Of a DNA stretch of 32,000 nucleotides, positions 8,420 to 31,251 are shown piece by piece. This DNA comes from an uncultured Chloroflexia bacterium (GTDB lineage: Bacteria > Chloroflexota > Anaerolineae > Anaerolineales > Anaerolineaceae). The notes under the pieces were generated by a model, which did no database searches, had not been told where the DNA came from, and worked only from the letters and a program-made list of their open reading frames with translations. Position numbers and translations under genes: made by a program. Numbering within the stretch: position 1 is the first letter of the stretch; each line of letters starts with the position of its first letter. Where the stretch lies: assembly GCA_963704755.1 (NCBI GenBank), contig OY969938.1:2490001-2522000 (forward strand). The letters run 5' to 3'.

Positions 8420-8644
8420 TTGTCCAAATACTCTCCATTACAGGGGTTCCTCGAAGGATTGCCAAGCAAGCAGAGAGAAATTACCTTGACATTCGAGTGG
8501 ATCGAGGAAATCCTTGATGGCTCTTTACCCAGGTCCACACACGGTTACAGTGCCTGGTGGTCAAATGAAACAGATGGGCAACACGTCCAGGCTAATAGCT
8601 GGGTCGGCGCCGGCTGGAAGGTGAAAAAATGTAGATCAGGTTAG
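8420..8644 (+). CDS. small conserved-domain protein (SKYxPL...LsFxeIExIL...LPxS...WWxN...aGW pattern)
   Basis: TTG start. MSKYSPLQGFLEGLPSKQREITLTFEWIEEILDGSLPRSTHGYSAWWSNE...WVGAGWKV resembles a recurrent small domain of unknown function that I recall seeing near R-M and defence genes. Confidence 0.5.
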   Translation: MSKYSPLQGFLEGLPSKQREITLTFEWIEEILDGSLPRSTHGYSAWWSNETDGQHVQANSWVGAGWKVKKCRSG

Positions 8645-8770
8645 GGGATGGGTAAAGGTTGTGAGGGCAATTGTAAGATAATCTGTAAGAAAATGGCATA
8701 ATTATTGCGTTAATTTAATTATTGATTGGGTTATAGTAAATGGATACTAAGGTATTGATAAGGGGCAATT

Positions 8771-10582: not shown

Positions 10583-10631
10583 TTCTTCCATTTATGACAC
10601 AGAAGAAAAAATTATTTCATCTGCAAATGAA

Positions 10632-11147: not shown

Positions 11148-11272
11148 GCGGTGCACATTATGCAAGAGATTACACTGATTGGGTAGGTTTCAGCTTTGCG
11201 CTTGAAAATTTCAAAAATATAATCGATTATTTTTATCCATCAATAATTTCAACAAAAACAAGAGAAATCCTG

Positions 11273-14200: not shown

Positions 14201-14305
14201 GGAGGGCATATAGTTGTGGCGATGGAAACTGCATTTGATTTATTAATAGGTACAGGCAGAGTTGATTATATAGATGAAAAAGTAATTATTAAACCAAATT
14301 CCTAG
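11273..14305 (+). CDS. same helicase-nuclease gene, segment 3 of 3 (frame open from 11129): AAA_11/AAA_12 motifs II-VI, Vsr/DUF559-like endonuclease, DUF3320-like tail
   Basis: Helicase motifs: FDIVVFDEASQV (motif II), IIAGDTNQLPPT (III), RWHYRSHHEHLIAFSN, VQGDERDTIIFS, GYRRLNVAITRAK (VI). The endonuclease core is GYRIDLAI...IGIECDGASYHSARTARERDRLRQAVLEDNGWKIYRIWSTDW. The C-terminal YPIHFELLCKR... region follows. Confidence 0.85.
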   Translation: MENISINDIKTINEKINGILETDILNVFIQNLAISDNVEDLQLFEIINNLKSALSIMRMLENIYEILTNSCLKELNYGELIKDLSKLGRMQEIANQVGIQYEHLRIKYLFFFNGIDTDWGRILDSLAWTNEFKKIIEKFRLSKVCVKNTCEDEKFITNAKQRLREITSKINEINTDLHWYFSLFDDKDELLTTNLHTFLTRLEDCSNSLSSLEEWIDFRSSREKCRDIGLSDYIEKIQIHKVNKETIVPAFLKRFYRLWLDAILPNYPAVYSFRRRTQDELIEEFKNLDKKQFIIAKSRIRQKLATKLPNLNQFSSAVDEVGVLKRELNKQRRFMPLRKLFREIPNLLLTLKPCLMMSPLSVSLFLNADIYKFDIVVFDEASQVCTEDAIGAILRGSQVIIAGDTNQLPPTNFFSASTSDSDFDNNDLDEDDYDDTDAYESVLDEAVTVLPERTLRWHYRSHHEHLIAFSNVKIYRNNLITFPSHINNEPNNGVEYIYVPDGVYDRSGKRNNINEANKVAELVFEHIQNFPSRSLGIVTFSEAQQQAVEMAIRQMRLENQQFETFFSEDREEDFFVKNLENVQGDERDTIIFSIGYAKDHNGVMHMNFGPLSKSGGYRRLNVAITRAKYNVKLVGSIEPTDIIIENTNSEGVKMLRSYIEFAKDGESVLQRELSIPDSIYTDSPFEDSIYQFLVSKGYSVATQVGCSGYRIDLAIKHPTLSGRFVIGIECDGASYHSARTARERDRLRQAVLEDNGWKIYRIWSTDWIKDPLTEGKKLTTAIDYAITSYNKNGFTIKKNENGEIKTTKEFSSSIEVPIKGNSITKIDNNNPYNFDYYVLADIKKVRRSNDDIQYLTDILRYVIEQEYPIHFELLCKRATYLFGNQKATVKIRRNVKYIINGYLQNEVIFRNGFYWPKRNSKIKVRISNSPGTERKLEYICSEEIAEAMFVISGHSFGIKKSDLFVATARAFGFNRTGGHIVVAMETAFDLLIGTGRVDYIDEKVIIKPNS

Positions 14306-14360
14306 TTTTTGAAATACCCTGTGTAATAATAGTGGTGAACACTTTAGATTTACCAAATCC

Positions 14361-16685
14361 ATGCTATCCAATAAAGTTGCCGAGGGGATCATGCTTCAAC
14401 AAGTGGTTAAAGATCGGATCTTAAAATCCTACGAAAATAAACAAAATTCGGGTGATCTCCCATCCGCCCAACAACTCGAAACATACTATCGATTATTCCG
14501 GCAAAGATTTGGCCCTAATACCCTCTCGGGCTTGGATGGCGAGCCCTTACTCAACCTAATGTACGATCTTGGCAATCGAGACAGCCTGGTGTATTGGCTG
14601 GAATACAAAAACGATGCTGAATTCCCGGCAATTTTTGGCAGTATCGCCGGCGGGAGTGCTTTGAAATATGGAATCTTTCGTCGAAGAGAAACAGGGGCTT
14701 GGACAATCGGATCACCTCAAAAGCAGGTTGAAATATCGGTTGCTGAAGCCATAGAAATCGCTCGGCGGAATTGGGATCAATTGATGAAAGGTGTTTTCAT
14801 TCTTCAAAACCTTCCTGATTCATCCGAGGATGCAGTTTATTTCAAACTGCAAGAAGATTTACACAAAGAAGCGCCAGGTGTCCAAGATTCCCTTTGGGGA
14901 CACAAGTATTTTCACCTGCTATTTCCGGAAAAGCTGGACACTTTTCATATGGAGAATTTACAGCAGTTTCATTTGATCAAGTTACTTCAAATGCCTCCTG
15001 AGAAAACCGGCCGCTATACATGCGCCGGCCGGTTCGTGGCCCTGGCACGTGAATGTGGCTTATCGATGAATATCCTGACGACTGTTCTCAACGATATCGA
15101 TGGGCGGCTTTATCGCTACTGGAGAATGGGAACACATGGAGGAGAAGACAACAGAAGTTATTGGAGCGAAATGGAACAGGGGAGTTACGTTTCGATTGGC
15201 TGGGATAAATTGGGAGATCTGTCTTGGCTTGAATTCAATAAAGAATTGAAAGAAAAATTTTTTAAATTGGTTTTGGATAAATACAAGAAAGATCCAGCCG
15301 TAACCGGTGGCACAGTCTCAAAAATTTTCAATTTTGTGGTTGGTATGCAAGAAGGTGATATCGTTCTAGGTGCTGATGGTAGACGCATTCAAGGTGTTGG
15401 CAGGGTTGTAGGGGGATATGAGTATCAACCCAATGGCGAATTTCCACATCACCGCCAGGTCGAATGGCTCACATTAGATCCTTGGGAATTACCTCAAACA
15501 GAGGGTCTTCAGTTTGCTATATACGCAATGAAGAAGCCTGAAAATTTAATTGCTATTGAAGAACGACTCCTCCAATATCCCGGAAAGCCCAGAAAACCTT
15601 TTATTGAAAGTGAGGGAGGTGGTTCAAGACGAACGGTACATCTTGAAGGAATATCTGGCCGGATTCAAGCTGTTTTGGATCGGAAGAAGCAAATCATTCT
15701 ATATGGCCCTCCAGGTACCGGAAAAACGTATTGGGCCAATCGCACTGCGAAAGATTTAGGGGCTTATTCTATGTTCGGAAAGTCTTTTTCAGAAATAATC
15801 GAAACCGAGAAACAGAAAATTCTAGGAAAATTTGGAGAAAAAAACGGGGTTGTCAGGCGTTGCACTTTCCATCCGGCTTATGGGTATGAAGATTTCATCG
15901 AGGGTTACCGACCTGTCTCGACCAACGGTCAATTGAGTTTCGAGAAACGCTCGGGGATATTTAAAACCATTTGTGAGGATGCACAAAAAAATCCTAATCA
16001 ACCTTATTATTTGATAATCGATGAAATCAATCGCGGAGATTTACCACGGATATTTGGGGAGCTGCTGACATTGCTGGAAAAGGATAAAAGAGGGCAGTCT
16101 ATCATTCTTCCTCTCAATGGAGATCTCTTTCAGGTCCCAGAAAATGTTTTCGTGATCGGCACGATGAACACTGCTGACCGTTCGATTGCTCTGCTAGATA
16201 CAGCTCTTCGCAGGAGGTTTGGCTTTTTAGAGCTAATGCCCGATTCGAGTTTATTGAACTTATCCATTGAGGGGTTACCATTAGGCCCTTGGCTGGATGC
16301 ATTGAATGAACGGATCCGTACCCATATCGGAAAGGATGCGCGAAATTTACAAATTGGGCATGCTTATTTTTTTGAGGGAGAGAAACCAATTAACGACAAG
16401 TTACGTTTTGTCCGAGTTTTACGCGAAGACATATTACCCTTGTTGGAAGAATATTGCTATGAAGATTATGACAACTTAAGTGAAATTCTTGGGGATCAGA
16501 TTGTTGATGCAAAAAGCCAAAGATTTAGGGAGGAGGTTCTATCACCAGAGCGTTGGGATCAATTGCTCATTGCTCTGCTTGGCCCAAATCGCGAAGTAAC
16601 AACCTCTAAAGAAGTAATTCAAACCCAGCAAAATGAACTCGAAGATCAATTAGACGAGGATACCCTAGATGTTGAATCCAATTAA
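14361..16685 (+). CDS. mcrB: McrB-like AAA+ GTPase with a long N-terminal putative DNA-reader region
   Basis: Motifs: ILYGPPGTGKTYWA, LIIDEINRGDLPRIFGELLTLLE, VIGTMNTADRSIALLDTALRRRFGF. An alternative start is ATG 14391, behind GAGGGG. Confidence 0.85.
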   Translation: MLSNKVAEGIMLQQVVKDRILKSYENKQNSGDLPSAQQLETYYRLFRQRFGPNTLSGLDGEPLLNLMYDLGNRDSLVYWLEYKNDAEFPAIFGSIAGGSALKYGIFRRRETGAWTIGSPQKQVEISVAEAIEIARRNWDQLMKGVFILQNLPDSSEDAVYFKLQEDLHKEAPGVQDSLWGHKYFHLLFPEKLDTFHMENLQQFHLIKLLQMPPEKTGRYTCAGRFVALARECGLSMNILTTVLNDIDGRLYRYWRMGTHGGEDNRSYWSEMEQGSYVSIGWDKLGDLSWLEFNKELKEKFFKLVLDKYKKDPAVTGGTVSKIFNFVVGMQEGDIVLGADGRRIQGVGRVVGGYEYQPNGEFPHHRQVEWLTLDPWELPQTEGLQFAIYAMKKPENLIAIEERLLQYPGKPRKPFIESEGGGSRRTVHLEGISGRIQAVLDRKKQIILYGPPGTGKTYWANRTAKDLGAYSMFGKSFSEIIETEKQKILGKFGEKNGVVRRCTFHPAYGYEDFIEGYRPVSTNGQLSFEKRSGIFKTICEDAQKNPNQPYYLIIDEINRGDLPRIFGELLTLLEKDKRGQSIILPLNGDLFQVPENVFVIGTMNTADRSIALLDTALRRRFGFLELMPDSSLLNLSIEGLPLGPWLDALNERIRTHIGKDARNLQIGHAYFFEGEKPINDKLRFVRVLREDILPLLEEYCYEDYDNLSEILGDQIVDAKSQRFREEVLSPERWDQLLIALLGPNREVTTSKEVIQTQQNELEDQLDEDTLDVESN

Positions 16686-18003
16686 TCAGGTAGAGCAATC
16701 ACAACAGGTAAACTTGTATTTATCAGAATGGACCATAGCTACTCCTGAAACTCATCCAGTTTTAGAGGGTTTTTCTTTCGAGAATGAGCTTCCTGCTCGA
16801 CAGATGGCTCAACGGCTAAGTGGATCAAGTCAAGTAGAGTTCTTGGAATTGACTAACGGGTTGGAAATTCGCACAAATTCAGTGGTAGGCAGCATTCGTC
16901 TTGGTAACCTATCCTTAACAATTACTCCGAAAATTAACGGGTTACCTTTATTCCGATTGATCCGCTTTGCTTATGGATTACGGGATCTGGAATTCTTTAC
17001 TGCGCAGAATTTCAGCAATCAATACCTGGCTTTCCAGGATTTATTGATTCTCCAACTCGTTTTGGAAGTTCAAGAGCTTTTTAGTCGAGGATTATTGCGC
17101 AACTACATTCGGAAAGAGGAGAAGCTTGCCAGCCCGGTTGGGAGAATAAATTTTCAACAAATTGCGAAACAAGGCGGATTGGTAGAAGCATCATTACCTT
17201 GTACAAATTCCATCCGCCTGGAAAATTGTCTTCATAATCGTGTAATCCTCTCCGGGTTAATTTTGGCTAACCAGTTTACTAGAGATATTTCTTTAAAAAG
17301 TTCTACCCGTCAGCTTGCCAAATTATTTATCCAAAGCATCGAAAAGGTGCGGTTGAATTTTGACATCCTCAGGCAGGTTGAGCGCGAATTGAACCGGCTC
17401 ACCGAGGCGTACAATCCTGCCTTGAGACTGATAGCATTATTGTTGGGTAATATTGGTGTATCAACTGATGAAGACCGTAATCAAGTACAGGTAAATGGCT
17501 TCCTCTTTGATATGAACCATTTCTTCCAGGCTTTGCTTTCAAGGTTGCTTAATAACTACCTGGATGGGTATGAGGTTGAAGATGAGCATAAACTAAAAGG
17601 ACTTCTAGCATTCGTACCCGGATATAAATTACCCGGTCGGCTTGACGCGATGCCCAGGCCAGATTTTGCCATATTCGAGAAAGGAAAGCTACTTTCGCTA
17701 TTCGATGCCAAGTACCGGGACCTTTGGAACACTGGTCTGCCTAGAGATATGCTCTATCAGCTCATCGTGTATGCACTAAGTCAGAAGGTAGAACGAAAAG
17801 CCACAATCCTTTATCCAAGCCTGGACGAAATTTCCAAGGATGCGATTATTCAAATCAATGAACCCATACAAGGTTCTGCAAATGGACATATTATTTTACG
17901 CCCCGTCAATTTACATAGAATGGAAAGCATAATCGTTGAAAAAAGAACCGATGAATTGAAATCATTCACTCACCAATTGATTTTTAAGGAACTTCTTAAT
18001 TAG
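16669..18003 (+). CDS. mcrC: McrC-like PD-(D/E)xK nuclease subunit
   Basis: It overlaps the mcrB end by 17 nt. The nuclease core is PDFAIFEKGKLLSLFDAKYRDL. Size and position are typical of McrC. Confidence 0.8.
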   Translation: MLNPINQVEQSQQVNLYLSEWTIATPETHPVLEGFSFENELPARQMAQRLSGSSQVEFLELTNGLEIRTNSVVGSIRLGNLSLTITPKINGLPLFRLIRFAYGLRDLEFFTAQNFSNQYLAFQDLLILQLVLEVQELFSRGLLRNYIRKEEKLASPVGRINFQQIAKQGGLVEASLPCTNSIRLENCLHNRVILSGLILANQFTRDISLKSSTRQLAKLFIQSIEKVRLNFDILRQVERELNRLTEAYNPALRLIALLLGNIGVSTDEDRNQVQVNGFLFDMNHFFQALLSRLLNNYLDGYEVEDEHKLKGLLAFVPGYKLPGRLDAMPRPDFAIFEKGKLLSLFDAKYRDLWNTGLPRDMLYQLIVYALSQKVERKATILYPSLDEISKDAIIQINEPIQGSANGHIILRPVNLHRMESIIVEKRTDELKSFTHQLIFKELLN

Positions 18004-18174
18004 ACCCCAACTAAACAAATTTGCTGAAATTATCTTCACCAATACAAGCTGTAAATTAACGGCGAAGATGGCAAGCATGGATCGGATTCTTACATTTCAA
18101 AGGCTTAAATTCTCAAACTCGTATTTCGCTAATTTTCTGAACTCTTAATAACATTTATCATCATCTCCTTCCTT

Positions 18175-18315
18175 ACCGGCATCTCGATTGATCCGGATGC
18201 AGATACCGTAACGGTCACGGTCTCCGCCGACCTCTCGGTACTTTTCCCCTCGGTGGTACCGCAAGTGATCGTCAGCGAAACGGGCACCGCCCAGGTGCGG
18301 GCTTTCTCCAGGTAA
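18175..18315 (+). pseudogene. orphan 3' fragment (46 codons plus stop) of a TadG-like gene
   Basis: It reads TGISIDPDADTVTVTVSADLSVLFPSVVPQVIVSETGTAQVRAFSR*. There is no upstream coding continuation because the flank is A+T-rich island DNA. Twelve nt differences from copy A give only one amino-acid change. Confidence 0.75.
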
Positions 18316-18530
18316 CCAATGGAGGAAGAACCTTTCAAATCCAGGCGGTTCTTGCTGGTACGCAGTGAGGACGAGAGCGGCGTCTCCGGAGTTGGGATCG
18401 TGGCCGAAGGGGTCCAGTTTCAGAGCGGGCGGGTGGTCATGGAATGGCAGGTGGCGCCGTACTCGATTGGAATTTATGGGTCAATCGAGGAGGTGATTGA
18501 GGTCCATGGGCATGGGGGAAAGACAAGGGT
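18175..18530 (+). repeat. direct repeat copy B
   Basis: See copy A. It aligns at a constant offset of 11708 without indels. Confidence 0.9.
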
Positions 18531-18806: not shown

Positions 18807-20340
18807 ATGCCTAAGAACAATCAAAAAAGTAAAAACGGGAACGGCGCTGCGCTGGGAATTGAACACGAACTATGGGAGGCGGCCGACAAGCTGCGCGGCC
18901 ACCTGGACGCGGCCGATTACAAGTCGGTGGTGCTGGGGCTGATCTTTCTCAAGTATGTCTCGGACATGTTCGAGCAGGTGCGTGCCCGTGTGGAGGAAGA
19001 GGGCTTGGACGATCCCGAGGACCGCGACGTGTACCTGGCGGAGCGGACCTTCTGGGTGCCCAGGGACGCGCGCTGGAAGGTCCTGCAGGACAATGCCAAG
19101 CAGGAATCGATCGGCAACCGGATCGACCAGGCCATGGAGGCCATCGAGCGGGACAACCCCTCGTTGAAAGGCATGCTCCCCAACAATTATGGTCGCGCCA
19201 CGCTGGACAAGCGCCGGCTGGGCGACCTGGTCGACCTGGTCAGCAACAAGATCAACTTTACTGACGAGGAAAGCCGCAAGCAGGATACGCTTGGGCGGGT
19301 GTACGAATACTTCCTCTCGCAGTTCGCCAGCCAGGAAGGCCGCAAGGGCGGCGAGTTCTACACGCCGCGCTCGGTGGTGCGTGTGCTGGTAGAAATGCTG
19401 GCTCCCTATAAAGGACGGGTCTTCGACCCGTGCTGTGGTTCGGGCGGGATGTTCGTGCAAAGCGAGAAGTTCGTCGAGGCGCACGGCGGCCGGGTGGGCG
19501 ACCTGTCGGTGTACGGACAGGAATCCAACCCCAACACCTTCAAGCTGGCCAGGATGAACCTGGCCATTCGCGGCATCGAGGGCGACCTGGGCAAGGAGCC
19601 GGCCGACTCGTTCCACCGCGACCAGCATCCCGACCTGAAGGCCGACTTTGTGCTGGCAAATCCGCCCTTCAATATGAGCGATTGGGGCGGCGATCTGCTG
19701 CGCGAGGACAAACGCTGGCAGTACGGCCTGCCACCGGCCGGCAACGCCAACTTCGCCTGGGTGCAGCACTTCATCCACCACCTCTCGCCCAACGGGGCGG
19801 CCGGCTTTGTGCTGGCCAACGGCAGTATGTCGAGCAACACCTCCGGAGAAGGCGAGATCCGCAAGAACATCATCGAGGCCGACCTGGTGGACTGCATGGT
19901 GGCCCTGCCGGGGCAGTTGTTCTACAGCACGCAGATCCCGGTGTGCCTGTGGTTTTTAGCCAGGAACAAGAAGAACCGCGGCGGGCAGACCCTGTTCATC
20001 GACGCGCGTAAGCTGGGCACACTGACCGACCGGGTGCACCGCGACCTGAGCGACGAGGACATCGCCCAGATTGCCGGCACCTTTCACACCTGGAAGAAGG
20101 GCCAGGGCTACGCAGATGTACCCGGCTTTTGCAAATTGGTTTCGATTGAAGAAATCCGTGCGCAGGGTTACGTGCTCACGCCTGGGCGTTATGTAGGTGC
20201 AGCGGAACTGGAGGAAGACGACGAGCCATTTGGTGAAAAGATTGCAAGATTTAACAAGAGAGTTGGAAGAGCAGTTTGAAGAAGGGAGGAGATTAGAAGA
20301 CCTTATTAGTAAAGGGCTAAAAAAACTTGAATATGAATAA
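18807..20340 (+). CDS. hsdM: type I R-M N6-adenine DNA methyltransferase HsdM (frame breaks near 20250; annotated stop 20279, repaired stop 20340)
   Basis: The N-terminus is [33 protein letters not shown]. Motif I is [11 protein letters not shown] and motif IV is LANPPFN. After ...FGEKIAR the +1 frame reads [29 protein letters not shown], a typical HsdM C-terminal helix that overlaps the hsdS ATG. Confidence 0.9.
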
Positions 20341-21490
20341 AGAATGGGAATTGGTTAGGATTGGAGAAATTTGCGAAGCCATCTTCGATGGACCACACGC
20401 CACGCCTAAGAAAACAACCAAAGGCCCAATTTTTCTCGGTATTTCGAATCTTCAAAATGGAAGAATCGACCTTTCGGATGTCGATCACCTTTCGGAAGAT
20501 GATTTTATCAACTGGACCCGAAGAGTTACTCCCCGAGAAAATGATGTAGTTTTTTCATATGAAACACGCTTGGGTGAAGCAGCAATTGTTCCTAAAGGCC
20601 TGAGGTTTTGTCTGGGTCGGCGTATGGCATTGATACGTCCTAATACACAAAAAGTAGATCCCCGCTTTTTGCTTTATTCATACCTGGGGCCAGAGTTTCA
20701 ACAGACCCTGCAGGCACGAACAGTTCACGGAAGCACAGTAGATAGAATTCCGCTTATCGAATTTCCCGATTTTCCAATTTCTATACCTCCTCTTTCTGAA
20801 CAACGCGCCATTGCAGGGATTCTCGGTGCGCTGGACGACAAGATCGAACTCAACCGACGCATGAACCGCACGCTCGAGTCCATTGCACAGGCGGTGTTTC
20901 GAGAATTAATGAAGGATGAAGACGGAAAGATAACGACTGGTAAGGTTGGAGAAGAATACAATTTGACAATGGGACAATCGCCGCCAGGTGAAACTTATAA
21001 CGAAGAAGGTGTAGGGACTCCTTTCTATCAAGGGCGTCGAGATTTCGGCTTTAGGTATCCAGAAAATCGCGTTTATTGCACTGCCCCCACAAGGTACGCA
21101 AAATCGGGTGATACCCTTGTTAGCGTTAGGGCTCCTGTTGGTGATATTAATATGGCAAAGGAAGATTGTACAATCGGCAGAGGAGTTGCTGCAATCAGGC
21201 ATAAAACAGGTAGTCGTTCTTACACTTACTATGCAATGAAATACCTCGAAAACGATTTTAAGAGTTTTGAAGCAGAAGGAACAGTTTTTGGCTCAATAAA
21301 TAAAGCAGATTTCCAAAATCTTGAAATTAGCATCCCTACAATTGAACAGGTACAGAAATTTGAAGAAATTTGCTTCCCGATCGACCAAATGATCGAGAAC
21401 AATGAAAAAGAAACCCACACGCTGGCTAATCTGAGAGATAGTCTGCTGCCAAAGTTGATGCGAGGCGAAGTGCGTGTGAAGGATGTCTGA
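20333..21490 (+). CDS. hsdS: type I R-M specificity subunit HsdS (two target-recognition domains)
   Basis: WELVRIGEICEAIFDGPH...IPPLSEQRAIAGILGALDDKIELNRRMNRTLESIAQAVF is the central conserved region, and ...LANLRDSLLPKLMRGEVRV is the C-terminal conserved region. The gene is A+T-rich, unlike hsdM and hsdR. Confidence 0.9.
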   Translation: MNKEWELVRIGEICEAIFDGPHATPKKTTKGPIFLGISNLQNGRIDLSDVDHLSEDDFINWTRRVTPRENDVVFSYETRLGEAAIVPKGLRFCLGRRMALIRPNTQKVDPRFLLYSYLGPEFQQTLQARTVHGSTVDRIPLIEFPDFPISIPPLSEQRAIAGILGALDDKIELNRRMNRTLESIAQAVFRELMKDEDGKITTGKVGEEYNLTMGQSPPGETYNEEGVGTPFYQGRRDFGFRYPENRVYCTAPTRYAKSGDTLVSVRAPVGDINMAKEDCTIGRGVAAIRHKTGSRSYTYYAMKYLENDFKSFEAEGTVFGSINKADFQNLEISIPTIEQVQKFEEICFPIDQMIENNEKETHTLANLRDSLLPKLMRGEVRVKDV

Positions 21491-21593
21491 ACTATGATTG
21501 GAATGATTTTTGGATGGACTATGAGTGAACCGGGACGCATGGATAGGACCTTTGCATTCAGCTAAATCGTGATCCCAGACCAGGGGAAAAGGC

Positions 21594-22019
21594 ATGATCA
21601 ACGAACAATATCTCCACTCAGAATTGACGGGTAAAATCATCGGTTGCGCGATGGAAGTCCACAAAACGCTGGGGAACGGATTCCAGGAAGTCATCTATCA
21701 ACGTGCGTTGGAAATCGAAATGAGTCAGCAGGGACTGGCGTTCAGCCGCGAGCACGAAATGGACATTTTCTATAAAGGCGCCAAGATCGGCAATCGCCGC
21801 GTGGATTTCTTTGTAGAGGAGAAAATCATGGTTGAGATCAAGGCGATCATTCAATTGGAGGACGTTCACCTGGCCCAGGCCATCAACTATTTGGAAGCCT
21901 ACGGACTAGAAGTTGGTCTGCTGCTCAACTTTGGCAGCCGCAGCTTGCAATTCAAACGGGTCATGAAGCCAACAGGAGATCATGCAAAAATGCCTCGTCT
22001 AAATCAAAGTCCATCATAG
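21594..22019 (+). CDS. GxxExxY protein (PD-(D/E)xK-like, TIGR04256-type)
   Basis: SELTGKIIGCAMEVHKTLGNGFQEVIYQRALEIEM...DFFVEEKIMVEIKA...QAINYLEA...GLLLNFG is the characteristic pattern, including GFQEVIY. Confidence 0.85.
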   Translation: MINEQYLHSELTGKIIGCAMEVHKTLGNGFQEVIYQRALEIEMSQQGLAFSREHEMDIFYKGAKIGNRRVDFFVEEKIMVEIKAIIQLEDVHLAQAINYLEAYGLEVGLLLNFGSRSLQFKRVMKPTGDHAKMPRLNQSPS

Positions 22020-22061
22020 AATCATGGAAATCATAGTTCAAGACAATGCGTACATGCTACG

Positions 22062-22101
22062 GTTGATGCGGGGTGAAGTGCGCGTGAAGGATGTGGAGTA
22101 A
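22062..22101 (+). pseudogene. relic 3' end of an hsdS gene
   Basis: It reads (L)MRGEVRVKDVE*. Positions 22062-22094 match 21454-21486 (the real hsdS 3' end) at 30 of 33 nt. Confidence 0.65.
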
Positions 22102-22103
22102 AA

Positions 22104-23633
22104 ATGGAAGCTAAACTTACTGAGAACGCGCTAGATGCAGATTTTGTAGCTAATGGTCTTCTACGACACAATTATTTTCCAACCCAAAAGGAAGATAAAG
22201 ACGAATTACCTCAAGTCTTCACATCAACGGATCTTACTGTCGAATTAGCTAATCAAATAATAACTGGGAAACGCAGAAAAAAAGATGGTTTCGATACAAT
22301 TGAATATAAACTAACACGTTTCAATGGTGTTTCGAGAATATGTTCTATACCACATCCAGCAGCATATGCCGATCTTGCCATCTGTATTCGAGATAATTGG
22401 AGTTCAATAAAATATATATCTCAGAATGAAAAAAGCGTAATAAAACCTCAAAAACATGACGATGGGCGCATCATTATTATGGATTACGAAAGTTCAATTT
22501 TTAGAGAACGGCGCCAATTAAAATCAATGTTTTCTCGGCGATTCATGGTTAAAACGGATATATCAAATTGTTATCCAACTATTTACTCTCATGCAGTACC
22601 TTGGGCTCTTGTGGGTTTTGATGATGCGAAAAAGAAGAAAGGCCAACGCACAAATTGGTTTAATCAATTAGATGAAAAAGTCCGTTGGATGAAGCGAAAT
22701 GAGACGCAGGGTATCGCCATAGGTCCTGCAACTTCTAATATTATTTCTGAAATCATTTTGGCTCGAATTGATGAAAAAGCAGTGGACAATCCAGATTACG
22801 TTAAATTCATTGATGATTATACTGGGTATTTTTCAACCGAAAGTGATGCACAAAAATTTATTCGGGAATTGGAAGATAGCCTCGGAAAATATAAACTGCT
22901 TTTAAATTTAAAAAAGACACAAATTATTGAATTGCCCCAACCGTTATCAGATGATTGGATAACAGAACTCACTTTGCGTTTGCCAAAATCAAACGAAACA
23001 TACACAGTTACTCGTAATGAGGCTATACGATTTCTAAATTTTGCCGTGGGGTTATCGAAACAATCTCCAGATGGGAGTGTTATGAAATATTCTCTAAAGA
23101 GCATATTGAAGCAATCAATAGAAGAATCAGCGAAGATTGACATTTTACATTTTGCACTTCAATTATGCTTTCATAACCCAATACTTATTCCTTTAATTAA
23201 AAACATCTTGGCGGATCTTGACGAAAACGAGTTTGAAGAGGTCAGACCTCAATTGGAAGAACTTGCCATTCAAAACGCGATGTTTCATCGCTCAGATGGC
23301 ATGGTTTGGCCTCTTAGCTTTTTAGGATCAAGAAAAACTAATATCTCTGAAAGAGTTGTAGAGGAAGTTATTAAAACCAGGGATTGTTTACCATTGCTTA
23401 TGGTTTATGAATATGGCAATAAAAGCCAAAAAACGAAAATCATTCAAATCGCAGAAGAAATTATTAGTCATTCGGATAATTATGAAATTGATCAGTACTG
23501 GATGCTTCTATATCAGTTGTTCCTAGATGAAAAGATTTCAAATCCCTACAAAGATGAAGATTGCTTTGAGATTTTAAAAGTGTCAAATGTGTCATTCGTA
23601 AAAAACGAAGTCAATCGAACAGAAAATGTCTGA
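22104..23633 (+). CDS. Abi/UG-class (defence-associated) reverse transcriptase with an all-helical C-terminal domain
   Basis: Palm motifs: A = FMVKTDISNCYPTI (Asp codon 22557-22559), B = QGIAIGPATSNIISEI, C = KFIDDY (DD codons 22812-22817). There is no maturase, RNase H or integrase part. The 509-aa size and helical tail resemble single-gene AbiK/Abi-P2-type RTs. Confidence 0.8.
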   Translation: MEAKLTENALDADFVANGLLRHNYFPTQKEDKDELPQVFTSTDLTVELANQIITGKRRKKDGFDTIEYKLTRFNGVSRICSIPHPAAYADLAICIRDNWSSIKYISQNEKSVIKPQKHDDGRIIIMDYESSIFRERRQLKSMFSRRFMVKTDISNCYPTIYSHAVPWALVGFDDAKKKKGQRTNWFNQLDEKVRWMKRNETQGIAIGPATSNIISEIILARIDEKAVDNPDYVKFIDDYTGYFSTESDAQKFIRELEDSLGKYKLLLNLKKTQIIELPQPLSDDWITELTLRLPKSNETYTVTRNEAIRFLNFAVGLSKQSPDGSVMKYSLKSILKQSIEESAKIDILHFALQLCFHNPILIPLIKNILADLDENEFEEVRPQLEELAIQNAMFHRSDGMVWPLSFLGSRKTNISERVVEEVIKTRDCLPLLMVYEYGNKSQKTKIIQIAEEIISHSDNYEIDQYWMLLYQLFLDEKISNPYKDEDCFEILKVSNVSFVKNEVNRTENV

Positions 23634-23779
23634 CAACACACTGTACCAACAAAATAAATATACTCATGCCGGCCCAGCGGCGGAAAGAGTTATTGTCTTT
23701 GCTGGAAGCTTTTTTACATGCCAGGCTACGTCCGCGATATGAGGGATAAGAGTAGGAATAGAATTTCTTAAGGAGGTTA

Positions 23780-23842
23780 ATGATGAAAGCGTTAGGAAAA
23801 ACGACCGAAACAGAACAACAAAATTTCAGTACAATATATTAA
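23780..23842 (+). CDS. micro-ORF (20 aa) with a canonical SD
   Basis: AAGGAGG (23770-23776) precedes ATGATG at 23780. It encodes MMKALGKTTETEQQNFSTIY*. Coding status is unproven. Confidence 0.25.
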   Translation: MMKALGKTTETEQQNFSTIY

Positions 23843-23873
23843 AACTGTTTTTTTGAGCAGGAGGGGTGGAATT

Positions 23874-24374
23874 ATGATTGAAATTGTTTCCAACCTTTTT
23901 ATCGGTAATGAACAAGATTATGAGTATCGAGTAAAGGGACAGACTGGCTGGAGAGTAGTCCATGCTTGTAAAGAGCCATATCACCGGCAAGCACTTGGAT
24001 ATAAGTCTCGTGGAGCTCCTAAAGATCACCCAGAATACCTAATTGCACAAAGAGGTGATCGCCTTATTCTAAATTTAGTAGATGCTCCCAGCCCTGCTTT
24101 TATTCCAAAAGAAATAATTGATGGTGCTCTTGAGTATATACATAAAGGATTAAGCGAAGGTCGAAAAGTTTTGGTTCATTGCAACCTTGGTGAATCGCGT
24201 TCCCCGAGTATTGGGCTACTCTATTTAGCAATATATACCAATATACTTCCAGATGAGTTTGCCTCGGCGGAACAAAAATTCCACGAAATATACCCCTTAT
24301 ATAATCCTGGTGCGGGTATCCGAGGATTTGTTATAAGCAATTGGGACTTGTATCAATCACGAAAGGAGTGTTGA
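23874..24374 (+). CDS. Cys-X5-Arg (dual-specificity/PTP-like) phosphatase
   Basis: AGGAGG lies 7 nt before ATG 23874. The N-terminus IVSNLFIGNEQD and the P-loop VLVHCNLGESRSPSIGLLYL (HCxxGxxRS) are present. Confidence 0.8.
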   Translation: MIEIVSNLFIGNEQDYEYRVKGQTGWRVVHACKEPYHRQALGYKSRGAPKDHPEYLIAQRGDRLILNLVDAPSPAFIPKEIIDGALEYIHKGLSEGRKVLVHCNLGESRSPSIGLLYLAIYTNILPDEFASAEQKFHEIYPLYNPGAGIRGFVISNWDLYQSRKEC

Positions 24375-24376
24375 CT

Positions 24377-25958
24377 GTGAAACTAACATTCTATCTTTTC
24401 AACGATACAGTTCATGATTTCAATGGCGCTCTTGACCTGGACAAACTAGATGAAGAAGAGGGATTTAAAGAAATTGAGTTGATCGAGGGTTTGCCGTTTG
24501 TGGCCAAGGCATATTTTCAACAAAATAAAAAGACAAAACCCCAATGGTTAGATTTTATAAAAGACTATGTCAAGGTAAATGAGGAAGAAGTATTCAATAC
24601 AACAAATTCATTTCTGCTACTCATAATGTGTGAAAACAGAATCTTTGCGATTAATCAGGGTTTTGGCTTTTTAGCCCTTAATCGTAAAAAGCTTGAGAAG
24701 GGATTTGGCCTAAAGGTTGTTCTGAATGAGATTGACCCCCAAAAAATTAAAAGTGTTGAAGCAAGGAATATAGACACAACAACAAAACAAAAAAGAGTCT
24801 TAATAAACAGAAGTAGTCCTCTTTACGAATTTGATTTTGATTTCGATGAGGATTTAGTGAGTATCATTTCTGGACGGCCCAGCGATGCAGCGCTTGCCCG
24901 TAAATTGATGGGATCTGATTCTCTAAGTCTTAATGCGGATATTGAATTTGTAGATTTAGGCGAAAAGTGTTTGCAACTTCTTATTTCTTTTAACAAAGAT
25001 AATTACCACCAGAATTTCCCTTTTATTGATTACTTACAAGTTGTAAGGGATGAAGAGTTACTTGTACAACTTGAGGATGTTTTAAAGACCAACATTAATA
25101 ACCGAGACCCAGAAAATCTAAATCTGGCATACCCTGAAATACCCGATTTTGAGCAAATTGAGAATTTCAAGATATGGTCTGGTCACGATCATAATTTTGT
25201 AGAGGATGTTGATATAACACAACTCTTCAATTTTCTGGATGAATATGAACTTGATTGTGATGTGGAAGGTATTTACATAAGTGGTGTGAACAGCGATGAG
25301 CAACAAGTAACTAAGAAGTTTAGCCTTCATGACTTCGTTGTTTTTGAAACAGTCTTTTCCGATACGCGGTATATATTATCATTGAACCAGTGGTTTGAAC
25401 TTGCTAGCGATTTCGTCGACAGGGTAAATCAAGAATTGATTCATATCCCAGAAATTGAGTCTGACTTTTTACCTGCCTTACACTATGGGGATAGAGAAGG
25501 CGCATATAATTCTTCTGTAGCGGAAAGTAGAACCGATATTGTTTCATTGGACAAAAATAATTACATGGTTGAAGGTGAAGGACAAAGTAGAATTGAGGTA
25601 TGCGATCTCCTGACGGAAAACAAAGAATTTATTTGTGTAAAGAAATACAACGGTTCTTCAACCTTAAGCTCACTTATTTAATCAAGGCTTTGTTAGCGCG
25701 ACCCTGCTTAATGATGAACAACGGTATCGCAATTTCATTATTTCTGAATGTCCTGCTGGATTTGTTGATCCTGTTATTACCGAAACAGGTTTGGAAAGAG
25801 AAAAGATTACTTTTGTTTTCGCAATCGCAACGGATACCACTGGGCCACTTGCTGAAAATTTACCATTCTTTAGCAAGGTTAATCTTGTTAAGACAAATAA
25901 AGCCATAAAACGAATGGGCTTTGATGTAAAAATTTATAAAATAGAAATCGTTCCTTAA
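24377..25958 (+). CDS. TIGR04141/DUF6119-like protein (frame breaks at about 25670; about 526 aa when bridged)
   Basis: GTG 24377 lies 8 nt after AAGGAG and 3 nt after the phosphatase stop. The listed ORF ends ...GSSTLSSLI*. The next frame, open from 25668, reads HLFNQGFVSATLLNDEQRYRNF...KIYKIEIVP* to 25958. The joined block IEVCDLL..ICVKK..SSTLSHLFNQG fits my recollection of this family. Confidence 0.65.
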
Positions 25959-25966
25959 GGTAATCC

Positions 25967-28900
25967 GTGCCTCATTTCACCGAATCCACCATTGAGCAAG
26001 CCACCATCGATTGGCTCACCGGCCTGGGCTACGAATACGCCTTCGGCCCGGAGATCGCCTGCGATGGCGAGCACCCCGAGCGCCGCGATTACCTGGAAAC
26101 GATCCTGGTGGGGCGGTTGCAGAGCGCCATTGCGCGCATCAACCGCGAGCTGCCGGCCCAGGCCCAGGAAGAGGCGCTCTACAAGGTCACTCATCCGGGC
26201 AAACCCTCGCTGCTGCTCAACAACCACGCCTTCCATCACCTGTTGATCAACGGGGTGGAGGTGGAATACAAGCGCAGCAGTCCTGTGGACAAGAATGAGG
26301 ATGGACGTACGGTTAACGGGCGGGCCTACCTGGTGGATTTCAGCGACCCGGACAACAACGACTGGCTAGTGGTCAACCAGTACACGGTGGAGGCCGCCCA
26401 CCAGAACGGCGTGGTCAACCGCCGGCCGGACGTGGTCATCTTTCTCAACGGGCTGCCGCTGGCAGTCATCGAGCTCAAGAACGCTGCCGATGAAAACGCC
26501 ACCATCTGGTCGGCTTTCAACCAGTTACAGACCTACAAGAACGACATCCCAGCCCTGTTCCACACCAACGAGCTGCTGATCGTCTCGGACGGGCTGAACG
26601 CCCGCTTCGGTTCGTTGACCGCCAACAAGGAATGGTTCCTGCCCTGGAAGACTATCGAGGGCGAAGCCACCGCACCGGCATCCATATCCCAACTGGAAGT
26701 GCTGCTCCAGGGTATGTTCGAGAAGCGCCGCTTCCTCGACCTGATCCGCTACTTCATCGTCTTCGAGCAGGAACGCGGCGCGCCGACGATCAAGAAAATC
26801 GCCGGCTACCACCAGTTCCATGCCGTCAATTACGCGCTGACCGAAACCATCCGGGCCTCGTACGACAAGGCCGAAGCGGTCAAAGAGTTGAAAGGCACCT
26901 ACCTGGCCGAACCCATGCGCGGCGGGCAAAAAGGCGACCATCGCATCGGCGTCATCTGGCATACCCAGGGTTCGGGCAAGAGCCTGACGATGGTTTTCTA
27001 TGCCGGCCGGCTGGCCTTGCATCCCGCGATGGAAAACCCTACCATCGTGGTCATCACCGATCGCAACGACCTGGACGACCAGCTCTTCGGCACCTTCTCG
27101 CGCTGCGCCGAGGTACTGCGCCAGACTCCCGAGCAGGCCGCCAGCCGCGAAGACCTGATCGAAAAACTCAAAGGACGCCGGGCGGGCGGGGTCTTCTTCA
27201 CCACCATCCAGAAGTTTATGCCCACAGCCGAATTGGGCGGCCCGCTTTCGGAGCGGAGCAATATCATCGTCATTGCCGACGAAGCCCATCGCAGCCAGTA
27301 TGATTTCATCGATGGCTACGCCCGTCACATGCGCGACTCCCTGCCTAACGCCTCCTTCATCGGCTTTACCGGCACACCCATCGAGCACACCGACGCCAAC
27401 ACCCGTGCCGTGTTCGGCGACTACATCAGCATCTACGACATCCAGCAGGCGGTCGAGGACGGCGCCACGGTCAAGATCTATTACGAAAGCCGGCTGGCCA
27501 AATTGGAGCTGGACGAAGCCGAAAAGCCAAAGATCGACCCGGAATTCGACGAGGTGACCGAGGGCGAAGAGCTGGAAAAGAAGGAAAAGCTCAAGACCAG
27601 GTGGGCCGCGCTGGAGGCCATCGTCGGCACCGAGAAGCGCATCGACCTGATCGCCAGGGACGTGGTGGACCACTTCGAAAAGCGCCTGGAAGTGCTGGAC
27701 GGCAAGGCCATGATCGTGTGCATGTCGCGCCGCATCTGTGTCGATCTGTATAACGCCATCATCCGGCTTCGCCCTGGTTGGCACTCCCGCGATGACAAGC
27801 AGGGCGTGCTTAAGATCGTGATGACCGGCAATGCCACCGATCCGCTGGATTGGCAGCAGCACGTGCGCACCAAAGCCCGCCGTGAGGAGCTGGCTTTGCG
27901 CTTCAAGGACCCTGCCGACCCGTTCAAGATCGTCATCGTGCGCGACATGTGGCTGACCGGTTTCGACGTGCCGCCCCTGCACACCATGTATATCGACAAG
28001 CCCATGCAGGGCCACGGGCTGATGCAGGCCATCGCGCGGGTCAACCGCGTGTACAAAGATAAGCCCGGCGGCCTGATCGTGGATTACCTCGGCCTGGCCT
28101 ACCACCTGCAAAAAGCGCTGGCCACTTACACCGAAGCCGGTCACCCGGCCGAGACCCCCAACCAGGAAGAAGCGGTCAACGAGCTGCTCAAGCGCTACGA
28201 GATCTGCAAGGGGCTTTTCCACGGCTTCGATTGGTCGAAATACTTTTCCGGCACAGCCCAGGAACAGCTCGGCGTGCTGCCGATGGCAATGGAGCACATC
28301 CTCACCCTGGAGGACGGCAAGAAGCGCCTGCTGCAGGCTGTGCGCGAACTATCGCTGGCCTTTGCCCTGGCCGTCCCGGATGATCGCGCGCTGGCCATCC
28401 GCGACGACGTGGCCTTCTTCCAGGCCGTGCGCAGCGCCTTCGTCAAGTCCACGGTGGATGGCGAAAAGAGCGCCGAAGACCTGGACCAGGCTATCCGCCA
28501 GATCCTATCGCGAGCCGTCTCGGCCGGTGACCAGGTCATCGACATCTTCGCCGCCGCCGGCCTGAAAAAACCGGAAATATCTATCCTTTCGGACGAATTC
28601 CTGGCCGAAGTCAAAGGCATGCCGCAGAAGAACCTGGCCATCGAGCTGCTGCGCAAACTGCTCAACGACGAGCTCAAACAGCACATGAAAAAGAACCTGG
28701 TGCAGTCGCGCTCCTTCACCGAGATGCTCGAACGGACCATCCGTTCCTATCAGAACCGCACTATCGAGTTGGCCGAGGTGATCGCTGAGCTGATCAAGCT
28801 GGCCGAAGAGATGCGCGAAGCCCAAAAACGCGGCGAGCGGCTCAACCTCAGTGAGGACGAGATCGCCTTTTACGACGCGCTGGAAGTCAACGATAGCGCG

Positions 28901-29131
28901 GTCAAAGTGTTAGGCGACGAAACGCTCAAGATGATCGCCCAAGAGCTGGTAGAAACGGTGCGCAACAACGCCACCATCGACTGGACCGTGCGGGAGACGG
29001 TCCGCGCGCGGCTAAGATTGATGGTGAAACGGATACTGCGGAAGTACGGTTATCCGCCTGATAAGCAGGAGAAGGCCACCTATACCATCCTCGAGCAGGC
29101 CGAGGTTATCGCGAAGGATTGGGCGGGATGA
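25967..29131 (+). CDS. hsdR: type I restriction enzyme R subunit HsdR
   Basis: The N-terminus is [19 protein letters not shown]. Also present: [13 protein letters not shown] (Walker A), [10 protein letters not shown] (DEAH), GFTGTPI and QAIARVNR. A long helical C-terminal domain follows. Confidence 0.95.
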
Positions 29132-30042: not shown

Positions 30043-31251
30043 ATGCAACCGGTTTGTCACGGCCGGTCCGGAAAGGTAGGCGGGGCTATGGCAGCCAATT
30101 CACCAACCCCATTGACCGCCCAGGAGCAGCGCACGGAACGCGCACGCGAAGCGCTGCGGGCGAACACTTTCCGCATCGCCCCGATAGGTGCGGATACCTG
30201 GTCGGTAAAGAACGGCGACAAGGTGCCCTACACCGTCCGGCACGTGGAAAACAACTGGAACTGCACCTGCCCGGATTTCTCCCAATTCGGCCCGTCCATT
30301 CGCTGCAAGCACGTCGAAGCGGTGCGCATCATTCAGGAGGAAAACGGTAACAGTGTCCCTACTATTGAGCCACCCATAGGCAACGAGGCCGAAAATGATT
30401 CGGCCCGCATCCGCAATGAACTCAACAAACCACTGGATATGGCCCGCGTCAAGCGCCGCCAGGCTCCCGGCAAAGGGACGGTTCCTTACCTGGAAGGGTA
30501 CGAGATGATCCAGCGCGCCAACGAGATCTTCGCGTTTGGCTGGTCTTTCGACCTGCTGAAGGATCCCACCATTATCCGCTGGCAAAAGACGCAAACCCAA
30601 TACAGCCAACAGCAGCGTTGCAAAGTACCCGTCCTGGACGATCAGGGCCGGCCGCTGCTGGAAGAGGTCGGGATCGTCTGGATCACCGGGAAGGTCACGG
30701 TCGAGCTAGACGGCAGGCCGATCTGCCATGCCGACGTAGGGCGCTGCAGCTTCACCGGCGACACCCCCGAGGCGCTCGACATGGCCATCGCCGGCGCTGC
30801 TACGGATTGCCTGAAGCGCTGCCTGCGCCAGTTTGGCGACCAGTTTGGCCTGTCCCTTTACGACAGGGACGTGGCCCAGACGGCCGGGTTGGAGCGAGGT
30901 AATGGGCATGCGAATAGTCACGCGAGCAGCTCCCCCGGTGGGAATGGCGGTTCCACCGCCCAACCTGCCGGTCGAACGACCCGCCAGACTCCCCCGGCGA
31001 AGTCGTCTGCACCTACGAGCGCTTTCGAAGCGGGTAAAGTGATCTTCACCCTTAAGCCCAAGACTCGCCCCGAGCTGTCCGGAAAAACGCTGGCCGAATT
31101 GCAAAGGCAGGCCCCGGATATCCTGGCCTGGCTGGCCAGCGATTACACCCCCACATCCGAGACTCAGGCGTTGAAAGATGCCGCCCGGCTGTTGGTCCAA
31201 TCCAAAGCCCGGGAGGACAAGGTCATCGCCGATCTTGGTTTCCGCAACTGA
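30043..31251 (+). CDS. SWIM zinc-finger / Rad52-Rad22-type single-strand annealing protein fusion
   Basis: The SWIM motif is CTCPDFSQFGPSIRCKHVEAV (CxC-x11-CxH). The Rad52-like core runs VPYLEGYEMIQRANEIFAFGWSFDLL...GDTPEALDMAIAGAATDCLKRCLRQFGDQFGLSLYD. The start is uncertain (ATG 30043 or 30088). Confidence 0.75.
   Translation: MQPVCHGRSGKVGGAMAANSPTPLTAQEQRTERAREALRANTFRIAPIGADTWSVKNGDKVPYTVRHVENNWNCTCPDFSQFGPSIRCKHVEAVRIIQEENGNSVPTIEPPIGNEAENDSARIRNELNKPLDMARVKRRQAPGKGTVPYLEGYEMIQRANEIFAFGWSFDLLKDPTIIRWQKTQTQYSQQQRCKVPVLDDQGRPLLEEVGIVWITGKVTVELDGRPICHADVGRCSFTGDTPEALDMAIAGAATDCLKRCLRQFGDQFGLSLYDRDVAQTAGLERGNGHANSHASSSPGGNGGSTAQPAGRTTRQTPPAKSSAPTSAFEAGKVIFTLKPKTRPELSGKTLAELQRQAPDILAWLASDYTPTSETQALKDAARLLVQSKAREDKVIADLGFRN

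Follow-up and report, generated by a model that had tools for sequence, protein, structure and literature searches.

The best described relative of the gene considered here is the defence-associated reverse transcriptase (RT) DRT4 of Escherichia coli 12-c8-a (WP_031606642; PDB 9vdo, 9vdv, 9ltm and 9l9s), the only characterised member of its family. It is a single-gene system that does not need a noncoding RNA (ncRNA) (Wang et al. 2025, PMC12783706). Specifically, the enzyme forms a dimer of trimers that primes on Tyr125 and uses D149, D240 and D241 with two metal ions, a D149A mutant being dead, and its product is random single-stranded DNA (ssDNA) made without a template (PMC12783706). The ssDNA-binding protein ORF55 of phage T5 shields this product from host exonuclease, upon which the infected cell dies (PMC12783706). 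An alphaRep domain has been described for DRT4 (PMC12783706) and found to be required, in a study that also recognised the single-gene status (PMC9226505), and the family, UG15, has been portrayed as stand-alone, enriched in defence islands and present in P2/P4 variable regions (Mestre et al., PMC9226505); published work does not say where in its genome the E. coli gene lies (PMC12783706). Here we report what is very probably a further, intact DRT4 in a 32,000-nucleotide stretch of an uncultured Chloroflexia bacterium of the Anaerolineaceae (assembly GCA_963704755.1, contig OY969938.1, positions 2,490,001 to 2,522,000; hereafter, the window). With the family already characterised, the informative part is the setting: the gene lies inside a type I restriction-modification (R-M) operon that runs, on one strand, hsdM, hsdS, a GxxExxY gene, a relic of an hsdS tail, the RT gene, a DSPc-like gene, a DUF6119 gene and hsdR.

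The encoded protein is collinear with E. coli DRT4 over its full length, and profiles and structure agree on the family. The NCBIfam Drt4 equivalog NF041749 matched amino acids 14-498 over positions 2-489 of its 489, at 565.3 bits against a cutoff of 450, and the PADLOC Drt4 model matched amino acids 10-507 at 619 bits (E 2.5e-186), with lower scores for Drt6 (322 bits), UG30 (227), UG14 (150), AbiK (136) and AbiP2 (108). Amino acids 17-506 aligned with the DRT4/UG15 sequence in the PDB at 41% identity (E 4e-110). In Foldseek, an AlphaFold model of the RT superposed on DRT4 (9vdo, 9vdv, 9l9s) with template modelling (TM) scores of 0.90-0.91 and root-mean-square deviations (rmsd) of 2.0-2.4 Å, followed by DRT6 (TM 0.82), AbiK (0.65-0.71), Abi-P2 (0.5-0.64) and AbiA (0.44), with values of about 0.3 for the RTs of group II introns, retrons, diversity-generating retroelements and DRT2/DRT9. 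The original prediction, made from the nucleotide letters and a list of translated open reading frames (ORFs), had described a stand-alone RT of the Abi/UG class, neither retron nor group II intron, of a group left open; the profiles and the structure match bear out the class, and the score hierarchy together with that match fixes the group, by sequence, as UG15/DRT4 within class 1 of the UG/Abi RTs. The second-best match by both profile and structure is DRT6 of UG12 (PDB 9wy8), which is likewise hexameric, belongs to class 1 of the UG/Abi RTs, carries an alphaRep domain and reportedly responds to the T5 protein that activates DRT4, but membership in that separate family was rejected, given a profile score about half that of Drt4 and 23% identity at its TM of 0.82.

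The size and architecture had also been likened to the protein-primed AbiK/Abi-P2 class, and this likeness holds in part. AbiK and Abi-P2 (PDB 7r06/7r07 and 7r08) are hexameric, protein-primed, template-independent polymerases of RT origin with a helical C-terminus and an abortive-infection phenotype. The RT shares their class 1 architecture (an RT followed by a helical repeat) and, as predicted, their protein-primed type of chemistry, and their models do recognise it (PADLOC E 7.5e-40 for AbiK and 9.4e-32 for AbiP2; Foldseek probability 1.0). That the gene belongs to the AbiK or Abi-P2 family proper is nevertheless extremely unlikely and is ruled out by the score hierarchy: 136 and 108 bits stand against 619 for Drt4, and 16-17% identity, TM 0.5-0.7 and rmsd 6-10 Å stand against TM 0.90 and 2.0 Å for DRT4. 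Further, their sequences can be aligned with the RT in the palm region only (PDB matches limited to amino acids 135-278), and AbiK and Abi-P2 have their priming residue at a different place in the chain; for AbiK, a Y44F variant has been deposited. It is barely conceivable that the gene encodes a retron or group II intron RT. The palm does draw weak matches from models of both kinds (TIGR04416, 31 bits; retron_St85, 22 bits), but these fall far below cutoffs of 300 and 235 bits, the TM scores are 0.32-0.36 with intron RTs and about 0.3 with those of Ec86 and Ec83, and an alphaRep domain takes up the C-terminus, with no maturase or X domain in the protein. An Rfam scan found no family anywhere in the 32-kb window, retron ncRNAs and group II introns included, in keeping with the earlier remark that no msr/msd-like inverted repeats were visible upstream. 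Profile scores, Rfam scan and structure comparison together rule this origin out.

The motifs by which the gene had been recognised as an RT are intact and supported by profile searches (Pfam RVT_1, E 7e-12, amino acids 133-276): motif A, KTDISNCYPTI (amino acids 150-160, including D152); motif B, QGIAIGPATSNI (202-213); and motif C, FIDDY (235-239), whose two aspartates lie exactly where they had been placed. By alignment, residues 1-280 of E. coli DRT4, its fingers and palm, map onto amino acids 1 to about 280. The AlphaFold (AF2) model, built from 55 relatives, is confident (predicted local distance difference test, pLDDT, 92.4; predicted TM score, pTM, 0.91), with beta-strands at amino acids 147-153, 232-243 and 273-276 and helices spanning 284-507. 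Its C-terminal part is all-helical, as the reading of some 230 helical residues beyond the motifs had anticipated. The features of the gene and of its operon are collected in Table 1.

Table 1. Features of the RT gene, the relics around it and the host R-M operon, in window coordinates (asterisks in sequences mark stop codons)
Feature	Coordinates	Strand	Basis
DRT4/UG15 RT gene	22104..23633	+	intact ORF, ATG start, 509 aa
RT fingers and palm, aa 1 to ~280	22104..22943	+	RVT_1, alignment with E. coli DRT4, strands of the model
C-terminal alphaRep domain replacing the thumb, aa ~281-509	22944..23630	+	helices of the model, DRT4 superposition
Tyr128 codon, predicted priming tyrosine	22485..22487	+	aligned to E. 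coli Tyr125
Asp152 codon, motif A metal ligand	22557..22559	+	aligned to E. coli D149
Asp237 and Asp238 codons, motif C FIDD	22812..22817	+	aligned to E. coli D240/D241
GGAG, likely RT Shine-Dalgarno (putative role)	22095..22098	+	5 nt 5' of ATG, within the hsdS-tail relic
hsdS 3' tail relic ...LRLMRGEVRVKDVE*, donor origin	22055..22101	+	40-nt direct repeat against the real hsdS end
Remnant of ancestral GxxExxY-hsdR junction, AATCATAGTTCAAGACA + ATG (22046-22048), former hsdR start	22029..22048	+	sister operons
Imported AT-rich block, ~3.9 kb: hsdS tail, DRT4, phosphatase-like, DUF6119	22049..25966	+	GC, GC3, boundaries
hsdM	18807..20279	+	PADLOC MTase_I 702 bits; TIGR00497 174.1 bits, below its cutoff of 242.75
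hsdS, intact, two target-recognition domains	20327..21490	+	Pfam Methylase_S, two stretches; PADLOC Specificity_I
GxxExxY / PDDEXK_3 gene	21594..22019	+	Pfam PF13366 E 5e-40; TIGR04256
hsdR, full length, GTG start	25967..29131	+	PADLOC REase_I 1110 bits, aa 3-1051; TIGR00348 587 bits

Residues known from mutants of E. coli DRT4 (PMC12783706) were mapped onto the RT by alignment, and their conservation was counted across the 55 relatives. The priming tyrosine (E. coli Tyr125, here Y128) and the aspartate triad (D149, here D152; D240/D241, here D237/D238) are conserved and invariant in 55/55. Among the residues that contact dNTPs (deoxynucleoside triphosphates) or DNA and those of the hexamer interface, R75, E202 and K274 correspond to R78, E200 and K271, all invariant in the relatives, F140 and N271 to F143 and N268, both nearly invariant, and K24 and Y337 to the conserved K29 and Y329. 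Thus, the two proteins have in common the RT plus alphaRep fold, the priming tyrosine, the triad, the trimer-interface phenylalanine and the contact residues K, R, N, K and Y, as well as the status of a single gene with no ncRNA. Against these stand a few differences. The RT carries FIDD in place of YIDD (F235 for Y238, a state found in 34/55 relatives), D127 for N124 (43/55), Q202 for H204 (Gln in 46/55) and D31 for S26 (21/55); at the interface positions Phe140 and Glu202/His204, F143 and E200 are thus kept and His204 is Gln202. It also lacks the flexible C-terminal tail of the E. coli protein (residues 507-540; 509 versus 540 amino acids), as do most relatives, and it sits inside a Chloroflexota type I R-M operon. 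FIDD, D127, Q202 and the short C-terminus represent the norm of the DRT4 family. The RT can therefore be described as a divergent but canonical DRT4, in which the priming tyrosine and the active site have been conserved far outside Enterobacteria.

By its residues, the RT looks fully competent, and we infer its chemistry, oligomeric state, trigger and phenotype from homology with the E. coli enzyme. It would assemble as a hexamer, a dimer of trimers, in which the hydroxyl of Tyr128 is the primer and the two-metal site of D152, D237 and D238 polymerises dNTPs with neither template nor ncRNA. The product would be random ssDNA, covalently bound to the RT protein. In uninfected cells, host 3'-5' exonucleases would hold this ssDNA short; upon infection, a phage ssDNA-binding protein could shield its 3' ends, the ssDNA would accumulate, and the cell would die ahead of completion of the phage cycle (abortive infection). 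Within its operon, the RT would be an independent second line of defence behind restriction. By sequence, it is a single-gene system, with neither a recognisable ncRNA nor an obligate partner gene. Specifically, the RT gene overlaps hsdS and abuts hsdR in many relatives, which leaves no room for an RNA gene, and among 87 related RT loci we found no homologue of the phosphatase-like, DUF6119 or GxxExxY genes of the window, so that these three are independent cargo and not partners of the RT.

How the gene came to lie in this operon can be read from the sequences around it. The TAA at 22099-22101, which is separated from the RT ATG by two nucleotides (AA) as first noted, ends a frame ...LRLMRGEVRVKDVE that copies the C-terminus of the real HsdS (...LLPKLMRGEVRVKDV), with 85% identity over 40 nt between the 3' end of the real gene (21447-21486) and 22055-22094. 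The relic amounts to only about 45 nt (15 codons). It had been taken for a relic hsdS, and it is indeed derived from hsdS, but sister operons indicate a donor's tail rather than the decay of a gene resident in this operon. The order hsdM-hsdS-GxxExxY-hsdR is found in all operons that contain close relatives of the GxxExxY gene (86-90% identity). Two of these (L089 and L094 in our locus numbering) encode an HsdR 82-83% and an HsdM 77-81% identical to those of the window, while a third (L096) has a 65% identical HsdR, and in L089 and L094 hsdR starts directly after ...AATCATAGTTCAAGACC, at the ATG that follows it. Because the window keeps a junction ATG like theirs and hsdR resumes at 25967, we read the ancestral operon, by sequence comparison, as hsdM-hsdS-GxxExxY-hsdR, with a block of about 3.9 kb inserted exactly at the hsdR start. 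After the old ATG come some 8 unrelated nucleotides, then the hsdS tail, the RT gene and the other cargo, and the limits of the block are this ATG (22046) and the present hsdR GTG (25967). Composition agrees: hsdM and hsdR have a GC content of 0.61 and a GC content at third codon positions (GC3) of 0.80-0.82, whereas the RT gene is at 0.35 (GC3 0.28) and the block at 0.35-0.41; hsdS is at 44% GC. On these comparisons, the relic is the 3' tail of the hsdS of a donor operon, imported joined to the RT gene.

Other loci point the same way. In L002, where the RT is 73% and HsdR 82% identical to those of the window, an intact hsdS (...LLPKLMRGEVRVK*) is followed by AGGATGTGGAGGAAAC and the ATG of the RT, as in the window; the AGGATGTGGAG element also precedes the RT ATG there, with hsdS intact. 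Directly after the RT stop of L002 lies a relic of an hsdR head (MGAFFTE / ESTIEQAAIDW*; ESTIEQAAIDW is 10/11 identical to HsdR residues 6-16). Next come a RAYT-like gene of 198 amino acids, weakly similar to REP-associated tyrosine transposases (52 bits to NF047646, which is below cutoff), and the true hsdR (1964-2677 for this stretch). Cargo seems to have been added repeatedly at the hsdR start. In two Anaerolineales loci (L001, 5630-7531, and L007, 7500-9560), an RT 70-71% identical to ours has nrdR and the genes of a class II ribonucleotide reductase as neighbours and R-M genes are absent, yet decayed relics of an hsdS tail (LCDRLMSKLMRGDFSIRDMEIS, upstream) and an hsdR head (IGIFYLSIIE*IAM, downstream) flank it. 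The RT product called in L007 is truncated (366 amino acids). A search for an hsdR-head relic after the RT of the window returned only weak, non-collinear similarity (E 0.06). An alternative origin, a mobile insertion that split hsdS, with a 37-nt inverted repeat around the GxxExxY gene and the 40-nt direct repeat as its ends and target duplication, was ruled out: sister operons share both the family of 12-nt motifs and the order hsdS-GxxExxY-hsdR, and the sister hsdR begins exactly where the relic of the window starts. By this comparison, the inserted unit is the RT block and not the GxxExxY gene.

The more useful result is how general this context appears to be. We surveyed 76 non-redundant metagenomic DRT4 loci (37-73% identity to the RT of the window) by tblastn with the Hsd proteins of the window and by a scan for the C-terminal motif of HsdS, which turns up by chance in 1.6% of random 150-nt windows. 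Some Hsd evidence was present in 38/76 loci. Among the 71 loci with at least 150 nt of upstream flank, hsdS lay upstream on the same strand in 36 and was directly adjacent in 30; where the upstream flank reached at least 1.5 kb, it was present in 24 of 45. Twelve of the loci with hsdS upstream extended 3.5 kb or more beyond the RT, and an hsdR gene followed in 10 of these; in nine loci the distance from RT end to hsdR start was between -13 and +12 nt. The commonest distance from hsdS stop to RT start was -4, an ATGA overlap. By this survey, about half of the related DRT4 genes come directly after hsdS within type I R-M operons, as a rule with the hsdS stop codon overlapping the RT start. Across these operons, the Hsd proteins are related to one another (HsdR 46-83% and HsdM 51-81% identical to those of the window), and in every related operon the GC content of the RT gene is 3-20 points below that of hsdM and hsdR. 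A phage collection held no full-length DRT4 relative, only Abi-P2-like palm matches, and a plasmid collection held one, unannotated, on a 1.3-Mb Pseudoalteromonas replicon. This homologue (L088; Pseudoalteromonas piscicida NZ_CP074588, 6842-10593; a 546-amino-acid ORF at 40% identity) overlaps by 4 nt an upstream ORF of 704 amino acids, which may be a different embedding partner, with no Hsd genes within 9 kb. Placement after hsdS is not mentioned by Mestre et al. (PMC9226505), in the DRT4 mechanism paper (PMC12783706) or by Payne et al. 2024, whose main text and supplementary files contain no mention of an embedded DRT4, of DUF6119 or of TIGR04141. The embedding is therefore undescribed in the mechanistic and survey papers that we searched.

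The embedding raises the question of whether DRT4 activity is tied to the state of the restriction enzyme. In one such scheme, the RT would work as part of the type I R-M system, in the manner of PrrC and EcoprrI: the Hsd complex would keep it latent, or the RT would sense inhibition of that complex, and it would fire once an anti-restriction protein of a phage disables restriction. The RT of the window and about half of its relatives do occupy the slot of prrC and of PrrC-type guards, between hsdS and hsdR (PMC12707154), and the counts of upstream hsdS and downstream hsdR, the modal 4-nt overlap, the nine loci that abut hsdR and the mutual relatedness of the Hsd proteins would all fit this. 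We nevertheless consider it decidedly unlikely. By analogy, a PrrC-like functional link is disfavoured because E. coli DRT4 defends alone, in a heterologous host, and because Hsd genes are missing from the surroundings of about half of the relatives, among them L001 and L007 beside their ribonucleotide reductase genes and L088 on its Pseudoalteromonas replicon. Further, the trigger of the E. coli enzyme is an ssDNA-binding protein and not an anti-restriction factor, other genes separate the RT of the window from both hsdS and hsdR, and the embedded systems studied so far are mostly independent of the host system. A broader and bolder proposal is that DRT4 of this environmental clade does not stand free but travels as a passenger dedicated to a single family of type I R-M operons. 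It would be translationally coupled to hsdS by the 4-nt overlap and often to hsdR, would spread between operons by recombination through the conserved hsdS tail and hsdR head, and might act as a PrrC-like guard that fires upon inhibition of restriction. The travelling fragments, that is, the relic of the window, the hsdR-head relic of L002 and both decayed relics of L001 and L007, can be cited for the recombination, but the proposal as a whole is unlikely.

An independent DRT4 behind restriction remains our preferred account, and several points weigh against it. First, the RT and the characterised E. coli enzyme share only 41% identity. Second, a deletion of the 38 C-terminal amino acids abolished the immunity conferred by E. 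coli DRT4 (PMC9226505), and the RT is without the flexible E. coli tail of roughly 27 residues, an objection that is weakened by the absence of the tail from most relatives. Third, the known trigger of DRT4 is a protein of phage T5, whereas the host here belongs to the Chloroflexota. Fourth, the island may be decaying, since two of its other defence genes are broken, DUF6119 by a frameshift and PDC-S37 by splitting. Finally, expression of the RT is read from sequence, with promoter and terminator scans that use a sigma-70 consensus, which may not suit Chloroflexota; with this limit, they found nothing resembling a terminator on the plus strand from 20000 to 26200, nor anything resembling a promoter just 5' of the RT gene. 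Because all genes from hsdM to hsdR lie on a single strand, because of these scans and because relatives are embedded alike, the most economical reading is that the RT is plausibly cotranscribed with the R-M operon from the region 5' of hsdM, which the original prediction had called most likely. Its second suggestion, translational coupling to the relic, cannot operate as suggested, given that no translated hsdS ends in the relic, which falls within an ORF of at most 25 codons (22024-22101), and the old hsdR ATG now opens an ORF of 6 codons (22046-22066). Coupling of hsdS and RT, as in the ATGA overlap of relatives, is by this comparison the ancestral state, lost in the window, where the RT, transcribed from the operon promoter, would probably initiate on its own GGAG inside the relic.

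These same observations bear on whether the RT gene might be a mere passenger, silent or in decay and at present functionless, that a rearrangement has cut off from hsdS. The ancestral coupling has been lost and the relic belongs to no gene, nearby cargo is damaged (DUF6119 by a frameshift at about 25669, PDC-S37 in three ORFs), and a GC3 of 0.28, against about 0.70 for the genome, suggests a recent arrival with poor codon adaptation. Set against this are an ORF that has stayed intact across 1530 nt of AT-rich, stop-prone sequence, the conservation of the functionally tested residues, a GGAG 5 nt 5' of the ATG and, in the scan described above, the lack of terminator-like sites from the promoter region of the operon to the RT gene. 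On these grounds, we hold a functionless passenger to be very unlikely and retain an intact, probably expressed DRT4.

The operon lies at the end of a defence island (about 6500-29100) that holds, in order, a split PDC-S37/Hhe-like gene, an McrB-like AAA_5 gene with McrC, and the type I R-M operon. The window is a compositional mosaic, with flanks of about 65% GC around 30-45% GC at 6500-18500. Three plus-strand ORFs (8771-10582, 10632-11147 and 11273-14305) match consecutive parts of the PDC-S37 profile (2-612, 508-668 and 640-1542 of 1550 positions), and this large helicase-nuclease defence gene, which is also Hhe-like (DUF4011, AAA_11/12 and MTES_1575 nuclease), is probably a split pseudogene. 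Directly 5' of the type I operon is an McrBC-type pair for modification-dependent restriction, in which the gene of an McrB-like AAA_5 ATPase (774 amino acids, 14361-16685) overlaps one of the McrC family (16669-18003, plus strand). Just 3' of the operon, a 402-amino-acid protein (30043-31251, plus strand) carries a Rad52/Rad22 annealing domain (Pfam E 4.6e-19) and may come from a phage or mobile element. A CpaF-like gene in the flank has its best named matches in Bellilinea and Leptolinea (75-77% identity). The exact-sequence clusters of HsdM and HsdR have as their other members unrelated cyanobacterial hypothetical proteins of 56-57 amino acids, which looks like a database artefact.

Inside the operon, the GxxExxY gene is one of a very numerous kind: relatives with 80-93% identity run into the thousands, and many of their contigs are very short. 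It lay between hsdS and hsdR in 3/3 contexts examined and is a regular resident of that slot in this operon family. Inverted copies of a 12-nt motif (AATCATAGTTCA / TGAACTATGATT) flank it at 21488-21499 (minus strand) and 22029-22040 (plus strand). These are the only two copies in the window, sister operons (L089-L097) have several around the GxxExxY gene, and the motif is a candidate operator, RNA structure or REP-like (repetitive extragenic palindromic) element. Downstream of the RT gene, a 219-nt spacer (23634-23852) contains a strong Shine-Dalgarno sequence, AAGGAGG, then ATGATG, which opens an ORF of 20 codons (23781-23843; MMKALGKTTETEQQNFSTIY*), and a 23-nt stretch of it (23667-23689) is 78% identical to hsdR codons 62-69; the spacer has no conserved counterpart in L001 or L002. 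The DSPc-like phosphatase gene that follows (23853-24374, plus strand; likely true start ATG 23874; Pfam DSPc 31.4 bits against a gathering threshold of 33.5) stops 2 nt before the likely GTG of the DUF6119 gene (24377), which suggests a two-gene cassette within the R-M operon. The DUF6119/TIGR04141 gene (24377-25958, plus strand) has a 1-nt frameshift near 25669 (...GSSTLS/HLFNQG...), which is either a pseudogene lesion or a sequencing error. With the frames joined, it encodes 526 amino acids that match the Pfam profile over positions 1-524 of 524, and the score rises from the 359 bits of the truncated ORF to 453. What looks like a gap of 285 nt before hsdR is thus its 3' end, with its stop 8 nt ahead of the hsdR GTG. 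For DUF6119/TIGR04141, we found nothing functional in the literature, and no PDB relative, PADLOC model or relative on viral contigs.

The interest of the locus, which is modest, comes mainly from the recurrent, tight embedding of this DRT4 clade within type I R-M operons and from the relics at its flanks, by which the exchange of cassettes can be traced, and in these respects it can be compared with two kinds of described systems. PrrC, in the type IC locus of EcoprrI, is a non-R-M defence gene that lies between hsdS and hsdR, is coexpressed with them (PMC12707154) and provides an abortive-infection backup to restriction. It differs from the RT in being an anticodon nuclease with no RT homology, and in its demonstrated latency and activation through the R-M complex; for DRT4, a link of this kind is not known. 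The second kind comprises independent defence cassettes nested in hsd operons, such as TgvAB in VPI-2 of Vibrio cholerae (PMC11411939) and the systems of Payne et al. 2024 (bioRxiv 10.1101/2024.01.29.577857), which fit a layered defence. If the embedding is confirmed on complete genomes, DRT4 would make a good model for abortive-infection modules that are layered behind restriction and exchanged between operons. Relative to those nested cassettes, the embedding of DRT4 is frequent, in about half of the loci, and often as tight as a 4-nt overlap with hsdS.

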